Origin: an uncultured Flavobacteriales bacterium
Lineage (GTDB): Bacteria; Bacteroidota; Bacteroidia; Flavobacteriales; CAJXXR01
Assembly: GCA_913063375.1 (NCBI GenBank)
Contig: CAJXXR010000003.1
Span: 70,051 to 134,050, forward strand
Direction of reading: 5' to 3'
DNA: 64,000 nt
Part shown: positions 11,176 through 14,947 of the stretch, piece after piece
Position numbering within the stretch: the stretch's first letter is position 1
Layout of the letters: every line of letters starts with the position of its first letter
Translations under genes and position numbers: made by a program
Notes under the pieces: model-generated
What the model saw: only the letters and a program-made list of their open reading frames with translations
Databases searched by the model: none
Told to the model about the DNA's origin: nothing

Positions 11176-13263
11176 ATGTCTAGAAGTAATCTAATGCATG
11201 CTACGGCGCATAAAAAGGAATATTATTCGGCTAAGGAATTGGTAGACAATATAGAAATCAACCAATTGGGGAATAAGGTCGAGGTGGAAATAGATGATAG
11301 TTTGGTGGCTTCAAAAGAAGTTGTAGACAGAGCCACTTCAGTAGATGTGGAAACGGAAACCATCACCACCTATCTAAACAAACGTTTGGCAGAAATTGGC
11401 GTAAAACGCGTAATGGCCATTCCTGGTGATTATATTGCCGAATGGGTAGAGAGTTTGGATATTCCAGAAGCCAGTGCAGGTTTAATCCGTGTACATCCCA
11501 ACAACGAAATGTGTGCTACCTATGCGGCCGATGGTTATGGTAGAGCGGCCAATGGAAAAACAGTAGGATGTGTGGCATTTACCTATGGGGTAGGTGCCCT
11601 AAATGCGGTGCAAGCAGTAGCAGGTGCGCATGTAGAACATGTACCATTGGTAGCGATTAACGGGAGCCCATCTCCGGCACAGTTCAACTCACATAGAGAT
11701 CAAGGGGTTTTGTGGCACCATATGTTTAATGGTACAAAAACGGATCTTAAAATTTTCTCGGAAATTACTGAAATGGCCGTGCGAATTGACAATCCTGCCT
11801 ATGCCCCCGATTTGATTGATGCGGCATTGACTGCCTGTATTACCAACAGTCTGCCCGTTTATATAGAAATAGCCAATACTTTGGGGGATTACCCATGTCA
11901 AAGTGTGGCTACTAGGAAAAGGATTAAAAAATCTCCTGTTGCACAGTCTAAATCAGATTTAGACATTGCTGCTGAATATATTTATGATATTCTAAAGACA
12001 TCCAAGAAATTGGTAATGGTAGGAGGGGTTGAAATCGCTCGTAGCAATATACAGGATAAGTTCAAACGCTTATTACAGCTCTTGGAGGCACCTTACCTAA
12101 GTACCTTGTTGGGGAAAGGGTTATTGAGTGAATTTGATAAAGATATTTATTTTTCTGGGGTCTACAATGGTAGAAACTCACAGCCCAATGTACAGGAATT
12201 ATTTAGTATCAAAGATGGTATAGTTCCTACCGTGGTTTATTTGGGTGTATTGGAAACAGATTTCAATTTCTCCGGGGTGACTTCTACAGATTATGATCCA
12301 GATCCAGGGATCACGCTTCCCTTGACTGGGCAAATAGAAGCACGTAATGGAGCTGTTCTGATCAACGATAGAGCTTCCAAAGAGATAGACAGTGATGTGT
12401 ATTGGGGGAATGTAGATTTGGAACCCCTTATTGACACACTGATTAAATTGATGCTGGAACGTGGGGCTTTACCAAACGCACCCTTCCCGGGATTGCAAAC
12501 AGGTACGCCTTGGGACATTCCAATGCCATCCGCCTATGATGCGAAAAAACAGGTGACTTGGGATAGTTTTAAATCCCTGCTACAGCACGAATACATCTCC
12601 ACTTTTGAGCAAGAACAGACACCAGTCGTTTTAGCAGATACCGGATTGACCTTTTATTCTTTGAACAATCTGAAAGTTGGTCAAAACGGATATATCGCCC
12701 AATTGGCTTGGGGTGCTATTGGTTATTCACCAGCATCCAGTTATGGGGTGAAAATGGCCTTGGAAGATACAGGTAACAACAAACAGGTAATTAGTATTTC
12801 TGGAGATGGTGCCATTTCCGAAAGTATCAATTGCTTGGGGACTATCGCTTCATTAGGACAAGACAATGTGATATTCGCCATGGCCAATGGGGTATTTGCC
12901 ATTGAGCAATTTTTGGTGAATGTATGTGCCTTTGAGTATAAACCAGATGCTCCAAAGTTTGTTCCTTTAACACAGGTTCCTCAAACAGCACTTTGGGATT
13001 GGATCAAGCTTGCGGAAGGATTCGGAGGAGTTGGTTATGATGTCAGCACCAACGAAGAATTGAGAGAGGTCTTGAAAAAGATAAAAAATGCACCTCGCCC
13101 GGCAACTCCTACGGGACCTTGTGTAGAAGGATCATCGGATGGATGTTGTGAATTTGAACCACATGAAGAGGAGGTAAGACGATCTACCTTTACACTAGTT
13201 GCTGTTCGTAATGTCTGTAAAGATTTACCTAGCAATACTAAGTGGAAAATGAGGGGTTGTTAG
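11176..13263 (+). CDS. thiamine-diphosphate-dependent 2-keto-acid decarboxylase (indolepyruvate/pyruvate decarboxylase family)
   Basis: It has the catalytic-Glu block NEMCATYAADGYGR and the ThDP/Mg motif GDGA-x24-AN-GVFAIEQ, with D-to-N spacing as in PDC. The C-terminus is PDC-like (FTLVAVRNVCKDLPSNTKW). It also has an N-terminal extension of about 60 aa and a Cys/acidic insert. Confidence 0.8.
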   Translation: MSRSNLMHATAHKKEYYSAKELVDNIEINQLGNKVEVEIDDSLVASKEVVDRATSVDVETETITTYLNKRLAEIGVKRVMAIPGDYIAEWVESLDIPEASAGLIRVHPNNEMCATYAADGYGRAANGKTVGCVAFTYGVGALNAVQAVAGAHVEHVPLVAINGSPSPAQFNSHRDQGVLWHHMFNGTKTDLKIFSEITEMAVRIDNPAYAPDLIDAALTACITNSLPVYIEIANTLGDYPCQSVATRKRIKKSPVAQSKSDLDIAAEYIYDILKTSKKLVMVGGVEIARSNIQDKFKRLLQLLEAPYLSTLLGKGLLSEFDKDIYFSGVYNGRNSQPNVQELFSIKDGIVPTVVYLGVLETDFNFSGVTSTDYDPDPGITLPLTGQIEARNGAVLINDRASKEIDSDVYWGNVDLEPLIDTLIKLMLERGALPNAPFPGLQTGTPWDIPMPSAYDAKKQVTWDSFKSLLQHEYISTFEQEQTPVVLADTGLTFYSLNNLKVGQNGYIAQLAWGAIGYSPASSYGVKMALEDTGNNKQVISISGDGAISESINCLGTIASLGQDNVIFAMANGVFAIEQFLVNVCAFEYKPDAPKFVPLTQVPQTALWDWIKLAEGFGGVGYDVSTNEELREVLKKIKNAPRPATPTGPCVEGSSDGCCEFEPHEEEVRRSTFTLVAVRNVCKDLPSNTKWKMRGC

Positions 13264-13270
13264 TAATTGA
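13108..13270 (+). repeat. direct repeat R1a (last 51 codons, stop and 7 nt of the decarboxylase gene)
   Basis: In my hand alignment it matches 14775..14937 at 157 of 163 positions. Weaker similarity continues through the following terminator hairpins. Confidence 0.9.
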
Positions 13271-13277
13271 CTTTAGA

Positions 13278-13306
13278 GCCGTACAGTTTTTTTGTACGGC
13301 TTTTTT
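13278..13306 (+). terminator. rho-independent terminator of the decarboxylase gene
   Basis: A GCCGTACA / TGTACGGC stem is followed by T6. Confidence 0.7.
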
Positions 13307-13615
13307 AGTGATTGGGATTTTGAATCAATTCCAGAATTATGGTATTGAAAATGAGTTTGTATTATATCGAGAATACACCATAGGTTATATTTAATATGGC
13401 TTTTGACTTAGTAATTTAAAAAGAAAAGAAATAATGATTAGAGATGCCCCATAGTTAGTGGAATGTTTGAAATTGGATCATAAACTTGAATGATCTAATT
13501 AGAGGTGCCTTTGGACATCTTCTGCGAAAAAAAAAATAAAGACTTAGTGGCTTGAAATAGTTACGGAAAAAAGTCTACAACAATTACATGAACGAAATTA
13601 TTAAAGTATAATATT

Positions 13616-14734
13616 ATGGAAGTTGAAAATTATCAGAAAGTAAAAGGAAAAACATCTTATGAATATGGAACCAAGATGTACAAGGATTTAGAGAAAAAAT
13701 TTAATGTAAACCTTGAAGAAATTCTCTTGTCCAAAGAACTAAGCTATGACCAAATTAAGGAGAGAGCTGTTGAAGCACTTTCAGTTGGGGTGAGAAAATA
13801 TCATGAAAAACACGAAAATAAAGATTGGTTATCTGACGGAAAATTTAGTAAGAACCCAGGAGCTTTCAAAGTAGTTTCTCCTGTATTTATGAAAGCATCT
13901 CAAGCGGTAGGATACGGTAGTTTAGAAGGGGATGAGGTGGAAGCACAACTTCAGAGAGTGAGTAGTAATATGAGTCGAATGTTGGAATCATCAGATTATG
14001 GTGTAGCATCATTTTATATGATTTCCGCTGGATTCCTGGCGATAACAGGAGCAGGTGCTGTGGGGTTTATTACTGCAGTGGTTACAGGTGCATCTGAAGC
14101 TATTGCTATAGCAGCTAGTCTGTCGGCGATGGGGTCAACAGCTATTGTGGCGGTTGTGATAATCGTTATTACATTAATTATGTTCTTTGTTTATCTAAGA
14201 GAAGCAAAGCTCCTTGCGTTGGTGATTAATAACACATCAAGGGATTTAGTAGTGAAAAATTATCGTGAGAAGGGAGGAAACCTGTATATCAATACAGGTA
14301 AAATGAGCGATTTTATGAATCAAGAAAAGAATATTGGAGAAGTAGGACATGACGCCCCACAAGTGCAAATCCACCGTAAAATGGATTGGATATTTGATGG
14401 AGAAGTTGAGATGGGGGTTTTTGGTGGATGGTATTTCGCTGAAAAAAGAGATGGAGAACTTCTTGGAGCTGATGGGGCAATGATCATAACGGACGATGAT
14501 GATGACAACTTTAGAATTGCTCAACAATATGCAGTACCATGGTCAAAACATAACGGGACAAACATCAAAATGTTAACAAACGATGAAAATGATGCTAAAA
14601 AAATATTTAAAGAACTACGAAATTCCCAAAAAGAAAGAGTGGTTATCACTGAAGGAAAAATGAACTTAACATCATCTGTAAATTCTATACATGGACAAGA
14701 TGTTAGTCTTATAGCTTCAATTACAGAAGAATAA
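13616..14734 (+). CDS. hypothetical protein with central Gly/Ala-rich transmembrane hairpin
   Basis: The 372-aa ORF has no signal peptide. Its N-terminal part (about 130 aa) is polar. A hydrophobic stretch of about 60 aa follows (YGVASFYMISAGFLAITGAGAVGFITAVV...AIVAVVIIVITLIMFFVYL). The C-terminal domain (about 175 aa) contains a DDDDD patch. I recognised no family. Confidence 0.7.
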   Translation: MEVENYQKVKGKTSYEYGTKMYKDLEKKFNVNLEEILLSKELSYDQIKERAVEALSVGVRKYHEKHENKDWLSDGKFSKNPGAFKVVSPVFMKASQAVGYGSLEGDEVEAQLQRVSSNMSRMLESSDYGVASFYMISAGFLAITGAGAVGFITAVVTGASEAIAIAASLSAMGSTAIVAVVIIVITLIMFFVYLREAKLLALVINNTSRDLVVKNYREKGGNLYINTGKMSDFMNQEKNIGEVGHDAPQVQIHRKMDWIFDGEVEMGVFGGWYFAEKRDGELLGADGAMIITDDDDDNFRIAQQYAVPWSKHNGTNIKMLTNDENDAKKIFKELRNSQKERVVITEGKMNLTSSVNSIHGQDVSLIASITEE

Positions 14735-14774
14735 TTTGAAATAGATTACAGTTGTTAAAAAGCTTGATAGTTTT

Positions 14775-14930
14775 CCTACTGGACCTTGTGTGGAAGGATC
14801 ATCGGATGGATGTTGTGAATTTGAACCACATGAAGAGGAGGTAAGACGATCTACCTTTACACTAGTTGCTGTTCGTAATGTCTGTAAGGATTTACCGAGC
14901 AATACTAAGTGGAAAATGAGGGGATGTTAA
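14775..14930 (+). pseudogene. orphan 3' fragment of a decarboxylase gene (direct repeat R1b, through its own stop codon)
   Basis: It encodes PTGPCVEGSSDGCCEFEPHEEEVRRSTFTLVAVRNVCKDLPSNTKWKMRGC*, identical in protein sequence to the end of 11176..13263. An in-frame stop lies at 14742-14744 and there is no ATG before the repeat. Confidence 0.85.
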
Positions 14931-14947
14931 TAATTGATTGATAGGGA

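Follow-up and report, generated by a model that had tools for sequence, protein, structure and literature searches.

A duplicated decarboxylase gene tail brackets a one-gene insertion in an uncultured Flavobacteriales bacterium

Arrangement of the decarboxylase locus

A decarboxylase gene whose 3' end occurs twice was examined in a 64,000-nucleotide (nt) stretch of a metagenome contig from an uncultured Flavobacteriales bacterium (assembly GCA_913063375.1, contig CAJXXR010000003.1, positions 70,051 to 134,050). The whole stretch is referred to below as the window, and coordinates are counted from its first nucleotide. The intact gene (11176..13263, plus strand) encodes a 695-aa thiamine pyrophosphate (TPP)-dependent 2-oxoacid decarboxylase with the Pfam domains TPP_enzyme_N/M/C, and is the final gene of a cluster with the order amine oxidase, lipoxygenase, decarboxylase; its scores against the NCBIfam indolepyruvate/phenylpyruvate decarboxylase models were under the cut-off. 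The C-terminus of the enzyme gave a full-length alignment with more than 40 homologues, and the live gene is thus complete and conserved. No other stretch of this enzyme family is as conserved as the tail, STFTLVAVRNVCKDLPSNTKWK, which is nearly invariant in homologues from several phyla. Members of the family have in common a Cys-rich insert (GPC...GCC) ahead of the last strand.

A repeat search of the window returned a 164-nt direct repeat of 96% identity, termed pair A. The first copy, A1 (13107..13270, plus strand), spans 51 codons at the end of the live decarboxylase gene, its stop codon and the 7 nt that follow, and the second, A2 (14774..14937, plus strand), is a promoterless orphan decarboxylase tail with its reading frame and stop codon intact. 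The initial annotation, made from the sequence alone, had described this repeat as 163 nt long with six silent or stop-to-stop differences; it proved to extend one base further to the left, and an ungapped comparison gave exactly the same six differences, at 13113, 13125, 13221, 13230, 13257 and 13263. These are ACG/ACT, GTA/GTG, AAA/AAG, CCT/CCG, GGT/GGA and TAG/TAA, all of them at third positions in the frame of the open reading frame (ORF) 11176-13263, so that five are synonymous, one exchanges stop codons, and the 51 encoded residues are identical. Upstream of 13107 and 14774, similarity between the copies ends abruptly. A degenerate 62-nt pattern of the conserved tail matched two sites in the window, A1 and A2, where none was expected, and the pair is therefore not a chance similarity. 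In a tblastn self-scan with all window ORFs, just two orphan tails were detected, A2 and the copy C1 described below.

The orphan is preceded, 11 codons upstream, by the in-frame TAG at 14742-14744 that had been reported previously. The accompanying statement that the orphan has no start codon holds apart from one internal Val codon, the GTG at 14790, from which a purely mechanical ORF of 46 aa can be read. Each copy is followed by a terminator hairpin on the plus strand, hairpin 1 (GCCGTAC...GTACGGC, then a T run) at 13278..13306 and hairpin 2 at 14948..14981. The two are homologous and diverged, and share the form AGCCGTAC...GT(A/G)CGGCTTTTTT; the weaker similarity that had been noted through both of them is real, since they align with indels at a local score of 35, where 300 shuffles reached 27 at most. 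These non-coding terminators are far more diverged than the coding part of the repeat. No part of repeat A or its flanks matched Rfam at the gathering score, the sub-threshold matches being terminator noise, and an RNA element was rejected on this ground.

Between hairpin 1 and the orphan lies an inserted segment of 1.46 kb (13316..14773, plus strand), made up of a 300-nt upstream region and a single gene, designated gene X (13616..14734, plus strand). The locus thus reads gene, complete tail, terminator, cargo, orphan tail, terminator, which is the topology produced by Campbell (single-crossover) integration.

Divergence between the two tails

Among the mutational opportunities in the 52 tail codons, the synonymous share is 22-30%, depending on transition bias. 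If only the orphan had mutated, and neutrally, the probability that six of six changes would be silent is 1e-4 to 7e-4. When the live gene was also allowed to gain synonymous changes, the value was 2e-3 to 1e-2 for the six sites, and 6e-3 to 2e-2 for the five coding sites alone. The earlier argument that silent-only differences are hard to square with neutral decay of a dead duplicate is borne out by these values (P ~0.002-0.02 with live-copy changes allowed). Silent-only change is unlikely under neutral decay of the orphan in place, and it is therefore reasonable to suppose that both copies diverged while they were coding. The formal dN/dS-type test (nonsynonymous over synonymous divergence) that had been proposed for the repeat gave a dN of 0 over 119 non-synonymous sites, with a pS of 5/34 = 0.147 and a dS of ~0.16. 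Since the tail is nearly invariant in the family, two functional alleles would be expected to differ at silent positions only. The divergence of the terminators is roughly that to be expected of unconstrained DNA at a dS of ~0.16.

Gene X

Gene X encodes a 372-aa protein with central membrane-spanning helices and a hydrophobic centre, and had no match in Pfam, NCBIfam or PADLOC. The search for this gene elsewhere that the initial annotation called for returned seven homologues among 5.8 billion clusters, all from Vibrio and Thalassospira and 34-48% identical, giving a family of eight with X itself. In Vibrio crassostreae, three tandem X paralogues share an island with AlpA, a RelA_SpoT/SocA_Panacea gene pair and a group II intron reverse transcriptase, and in Thalassospira the homologue adjoins a gene without assigned function and an outer-membrane beta-barrel gene. 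Because its homologues are rare, patchily distributed and found in islands, gene X is taken to be a mobile accessory gene. An AlphaFold model from the eight-member alignment was unusable (predicted local distance difference test score, pLDDT, of 46).

A terminator scan of 14735-14947 found none, so that X has no terminator of its own ahead of the orphan, and hairpin 2 presumably ends its transcript. The next terminator after X being that of the orphan, A2 is likely to form part of the 3' untranslated region of X.

Two further flank duplications downstream

Two more duplications follow in the same region, so that three flank duplications of unrelated sequence (A, B and C) lie within 9 kb. Pair C resembles pair A most closely. 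Copy C2 (21905-22091, minus strand) is the tail and terminator of an intact gene with a type IX secretion system (T9SS) sorting domain (21905..22892 with the repeat, gene 21984-22892, minus strand), and copy C1 (17899..18068, minus strand) comprises the orphan last 35 codons of such a gene, with stop codon and terminator. The bracketed segment of 3.8 kb (18069..21904) holds three genes, encoding a full-length outer-membrane beta-barrel protein (18067-18702, minus strand), a 473-aa protein of unassigned function (18956-20377, plus strand) and a flavin-monooxygenase-like protein (20500-21549, minus strand); C1 begins exactly at the stop codon of the beta-barrel gene. The orphan has kept its frame and stop codon, and 11 of the 16 differences fall at third positions (P 0.004), with a dN/dS of 0.15 and a dS of 0.64. 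Pair C therefore displays coding-type divergence and the same topology as pair A. Its copies are 85% identical, and the longest identical run is 30 nt.

Pair B, of ~185 nt, is non-coding and promoter-like. Copy B1 (15018..15198, plus strand) starts ~30 nt past the end of the A2 flank, and is ~91% identical, with a 9-nt indel, to B2 (17124..17294, plus strand), which lies directly upstream of a PhnB-like gene, P2 (PhnB-182, 17322-17870, plus strand). The pair brackets an AT-rich gene (23% G+C), which belongs to the integron-type cassette described below, and a second PhnB-like gene of the VOC family (glyoxalase superfamily), P1 (PhnB-142, 16519..16947, plus strand). An old tandem duplication of a promoter together with a PhnB-like gene was rejected as the source of B1 and B2, because P1 and P2 are 50% identical and the repeats 91%.

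When the bracketed segments are removed, the order becomes decarboxylase, A, B, P2, C, T9SS gene, and the duplicated pieces (164-215, ~185 and ~170-187 nt, respectively) cover nearly all of the non-ORF DNA of this cargo-free order.

Comparison with other loci

Twenty-seven distinct loci carrying decarboxylase homologues were compared, ~230 loci were fetched overall, and clusters at 90% identity were searched over 15 billion proteins. Apart from call variants of the same gene, all tested proteins encoded between 7.1 and 22.8 kb were singletons at 90% identity, with the exception of PhnB-142. This protein is at least 90% identical to proteins from Allomuricauda and Eudoraea, and belongs to a 288-member cluster at 90% identity; at the DNA level, the identity of 91% is confined to the ORF.

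None of the 27 other loci contained a second decarboxylase tail or fragment, the lone weak match (L031) lying inside an amine oxidase gene, and the decarboxylase tail is therefore not a recurrent integration target. Gene X was absent downstream of the decarboxylase in all 27. The two loci with the closest homologues (L002 and L003) shared nothing with the window past the operon, and the downstream context was shared by none of the 27. DNA resembling repeat B, the flanks of X or the cargo of pair C was absent from the ~230 fetched loci. Two scans of metagenome and genome collections with a degenerate tail pattern gave no matches, although the pattern fits both copies in the window. An exact look-up of the decarboxylase and the cluster searches at 90% identity likewise turned up no close relative.

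The three-gene cluster itself (7096-13263) is also present in Ancylomarina (L003/L009), with ~70% DNA identity, and with a changed gene order in another Bacteroidota metagenome-assembled genome (L031). Homologues of the decarboxylase are scattered over Proteobacteria, Actinomycetota and other phyla, a distribution that points to horizontal movement of the pathway.

Relation to known displaced gene tails

The closest counterpart of pair A is icd-e14-icdC of Escherichia coli (and phage 21 at icd), in which the insert supplies the last ~165 nt of the gene and the original tail persists as a promoterless orphan beyond the insert (PMC13626634). We re-measured this locus in E. coli MG1655, and found a 165-nt tail duplication with 12 differences, of which nine are synonymous codons and two exchange Asp for Glu; its terminator hairpins are homologous and more diverged. 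In both systems, then, nearly all differences are synonymous (there nine plus the two Asp-to-Glu changes, here six of six silent), and the terminator is duplicated and more diverged than the tail. The systems differ in their inserts: e14 is 15.2 kb long and carries intE and xisE, whereas the present insert is 1.46 kb long with one gene, and no recombinase is encoded in the 64 kb. The decarboxylase locus thus shares with displaced-3'-end systems a direct repeat of the gene's own tail that includes the stop codon, a full-length conserved gene, coding-type differences and accessory DNA between the copies, and lacks the element-encoded integrase or excisionase of the prophage or island version. 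We regard the feature as real; a gene tail displaced in the manner of a Campbell-type insertion, with the gene itself left intact, is a pattern long familiar from E. coli, and the locus represents no new kind of system.

A second counterpart comes from experiments on E. coli conjugation, in which single crossovers of circular molecules accounted for 56 of the 60 events recovered, and true homology-facilitated illegitimate recombination was far rarer (PMC3240628). In the 14 events that were sequenced, the insert lay between direct duplications of the homologous segment, 109-950 bp in length, and no integrase was needed (PMC3240628). Those were laboratory plasmids with identical homology, whereas the present duplications are natural and 85-96% identical.

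C-terminal displacement and orphan 3' ends are also found in rhs, contact-dependent inhibition (CDI) and type VI secretion system (T6SS) effector loci, where they have been attributed to homology-facilitated illegitimate recombination; for the orphan ends at rhs and T6SS loci, recombination at one end has been put forward (PMC5361080). There, as may be the case here, a new module enters by recombination in the conserved sequence upstream, and the old 3' end is pushed downstream as an orphan. The tails at those loci encode different toxins with matching immunity genes, in contrast to the same peptide of a metabolic enzyme in the window. Displacement of a polymorphic-toxin C-terminus was rejected as an interpretation of pair A, because A1 and A2 specify the same 51 residues, and these belong to a TPP enzyme.

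Origin of the duplicated tail

The explanation that we favor, with moderate confidence, is that DNA from a related lineage inserted in Campbell fashion, through a single crossover of the RecA type, and that the decarboxylase tail was duplicated in the process. For this we infer a circular intermediate: the donor would have been a small circular or circularised DNA bearing ~210 nt homologous to the 164 nt of the tail and its terminator, together with gene X and the region upstream of X. The homologous ~210 nt would have come from a related lineage, in which they were part of a working gene. The resident tail would have been the site of the crossover, and the 95-nt identical core that separates the differences of pair A is its most plausible position. 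Its outcome would be a live gene that keeps a whole tail and a terminator, followed by X and by the displaced orphan tail with the other terminator, which would now serve gene X. A RecA-type crossover is preferred to an integrase because no recombinase is encoded in the 64 kb, because three unrelated duplications lie side by side, and because their sizes fall within the experimental range cited above. Specifically, no recombinase, integrase, excisionase, transposase or reverse transcriptase was found in any ORF of at least 120 aa in the window. The insertion is also supported by pair C, with its like topology, and by pair B, which encloses foreign DNA of 23% G+C.

Several observations weigh against this explanation. 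A 1.5-kb circle without replication or transfer function has no obvious source. Neither an empty site, a donor, a second lineage nor an excision product was found in the comparative searches, in which the closest decarboxylase was 73% identical. The six differences of pair A are clustered at its two ends, on either side of the identical core (P ~0.01), and this clustering is not explained by a crossover alone, nor is it predicted by a simple two-lineage history. Pair C is a poor RecA substrate, and its history may therefore differ. Finally, the near match to e14 suits equally well an integrase that acted in trans or has since been lost. The initial annotation had proposed that the two copies diverged as parts of functional genes in different lineages, and were then brought together by recombination. 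The coding-type pattern of differences, the match to icd, e14 and icdC, and pair C lend this proposal partial support; a truncated second copy fits the same statistics.

Such a truncated copy is the basis of an alternative that we consider improbable, though it has more in its favor than the others. The orphan may be the remnant of a second, once-functional decarboxylase, tandem or acquired, that stood downstream of X, with purifying selection acting on both genes until a recent deletion removed the first 1.9 kb of the second. This history accounts equally well for the silent-only pattern, and it suits pair C better, in that a dS of 0.64 with a dN/dS of 0.15 looks like long co-existence of two coding copies; genes with T9SS sorting domains and outer-membrane beta-barrel genes do have paralogues in the window. 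However, it needs both a duplication or acquisition and a deletion that by chance spared X, with a breakpoint 39 nt past the X stop codon. Three such two-step histories would have to be assumed within 9 kb, each leaving a remnant of similar size (164-215 nt), and 0 of the 27 other decarboxylase loci have two copies or a fragment.

Site-specific insertion by an integrase is somewhat less probable still. In this case, an element with a substitute tail and terminator in its attachment site would have inserted into the gene, and would since have decayed to one gene, or would be non-autonomous with its integrase encoded elsewhere. The quantitative match to icd, e14 and icdC is near exact, down to the copied terminator, the 95-nt identical block between the differences resembles an att core, and the integron-type cassette 250 nt downstream indicates that site-specific recombinases act on the locus in trans. 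Nevertheless, the 64 kb encode no integrase, excisionase or recombinase, and the insert is just 1.5 kb; the three unrelated neighbouring duplications would demand three specificities, the tail is not a recurrent target in the 27 other loci, and repeat A neither scores nor folds like the local attC family.

An artefact of metagenome assembly appears quite unlikely. Two strain alleles might have been placed in series, or a 1667-bp circle and an empty site might have been misresolved through the 95-nt shared node. The window does derive from a metagenome contig, and the decarboxylase is absent from the Logan assembly in which its neighbours are present, as a graph break at the repeat would produce. 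Against this, the junction between X and the orphan (14773/14774) joins sequences that share nothing, and so must exist in the reads, and each unique flank has allele-specific bases no more than 20-50 nt away. A JGI contig of 523 kb (3300030037 Ga0239576_1000020), identical over the window, and an NCBI contig of 124 kb both carry the full-length decarboxylase and, by contig counts, X, the comparison being one of gene content and not of order. The circle version would in any case still hold the orphan tail.

Duplication in place, by a long target-site duplication or by replication slippage at the time of the X insertion, with the orphan decaying neutrally thereafter, is very doubtful: the similar size of the three duplications (~165-215 nt) hints at a mechanical cause and the A copies are 96% alike, yet six of six changes are silent (P 2e-3 to 1e-2 even with synonymous changes in the live copy), pair C has a dN/dS of 0.15, and divergence is far greater in the non-coding terminator than in the codons.

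Returning to the Campbell-type insertion, its extension to the whole region is speculative, and we hold it to be improbable as it stands. The locus may gain accessory genes repeatedly by an integrase-independent, homology-driven route, each event leaving flank duplications of 110-215 nt; the tails would stay coding-competent, and recombination between them would remove the cargo and restore a working gene. If so, related strains would have a means of reversible, scar-free cassette exchange. Whatever its route, the insertion provides a clean natural example of how a conserved metabolic gene can receive a foreign gene in its end without being lost to the bacterium, and suggests that displaced-tail scars are not confined to integrase-carrying prophages. 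With three scars of this type and an integron-type cassette in 9 kb, the locus stands out as a small hotspot at which an uncultured, marine-type flavobacterium gains genes. Given population data, exchanges between strains could be dated and traced from the scars.

An integron-type cassette beside the insertion

The integron-type gene cassette (15191..16496, plus strand) consists of the AT-rich gene (15216-16334, plus strand, 372 aa) and an attC-like site of ~150 nt (16348-16496, plus strand). Its boundary motifs are GTTGGCAGTAAT, at 15191 and 16483, and ACTACTGCCAAC, at 16354, with GTTGGCAGTAAT 128 nt past ACTACTGCCAAC. Homologues of the AT-rich gene in other metagenomes are 86-87% identical at the nucleotide level, and share DNA with the window only from 15181/15191 to 16367/16376. 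A metagenome scan with the boundary motifs returned at least 119 loci, and a right-to-left motif spacing of 126-131 nt was found in 8 of 38 pairs among the matches listed. The ~150-nt elements form a long imperfect hairpin, in which 10 of 18 pairs show compensatory changes. A covariance model for which only other metagenomes were used matched 16348-16496 at 94.6 bits (E 2e-20), its sole match in the window, and identified 138 sites in 100 loci, with same-strand arrays of up to ~10 on marine metagenome contigs. As in integron cassettes, the 5' and 3' motifs of any one cassette are complementary to each other. An IntI-like tyrosine recombinase is encoded 1.1 kb upstream of one array. The cassette genes in one array include ones for a KAP NTPase, T5orf172 and a trypsin-like protease domain, and this array ends in a Fic-domain gene. 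The window itself has one attC-like site and no integrase.

The end of B1 coincides exactly with the G|TT boundary of this cassette. In Allomuricauda (L004, 9730-10426), the PhnB-142 gene is directly downstream of an attC-like site (87.6 bits), and the neighbourhood is otherwise unrelated. In another locus (L041, Logan ERR13828725, 146-4202), the same cassette boundaries surround three genes, with attC-like sites on both sides; these are a homologue of the AT-rich gene and genes for 550-aa and 397-aa proteins without a Pfam match. The cassette in the window looks like a one-gene form of this three-gene module, which is possibly a defence system. Gene X and the AT-rich gene, both of 372 aa, were considered as paralogues, and this was rejected since their sequences are unrelated.

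Integron cassettes resemble the X insertion in being one-gene units in a single orientation downstream of a resident gene, but gene X has no attC-like site and repeat A does not fold as attC. A cassette origin of repeat A and gene X was therefore rejected: the covariance model matched only 16348-16496, and A folds no better than shuffled sequence (z -0.5 to -1.2). The decarboxylase stop region, GTTGTTAGTAAT, has 10 of 12 positions in common with the cassette boundary motif, and repeat A begins with CTACTGG. We treat this similarity as coincidence, because the spacing is 146 nt rather than 128 nt, the ends are non-complementary, and there is neither a covariance match nor a hairpin. Repeat B was likewise rejected as attC-like by the covariance model and by folding.

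Other element classes and dispersed repeats

Two further classes of element were rejected for pair A. A diversity-generating retroelement does not fit, as the differences are not confined to adenines (the orphan has T, G, G, G, A and A at the six sites), all changes are silent, and the window has no reverse transcriptase. Nor does a transposon target-site duplication, given the length of at least 164 nt, the coding-type divergence, and the lack of inverted ends or a transposase.

Elsewhere in the window, a 49-nt direct repeat of 80% identity (31140-31188 and 32581-32629) lies upstream of two adjacent minus-strand regulator genes, one Crp-like (30567-31133) and one AraC-type (31353-32471), and is possibly another small promoter duplication. 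Near-identical terminator-like hairpins of the form AAAAAAGACTTA...TAAGTCTTTTTT occur at 20389-20464, 23090-23165, 29974-30034, 34380-34428, 49980-50055 and 57212-57260, and a second hairpin family, CCCATCAGAGTCACTC...GGACTCTGATG, at 3163, 3220, 49796 and 57251. Both families are dispersed intergenic repeats that resemble repetitive extragenic palindrome (REP) elements.

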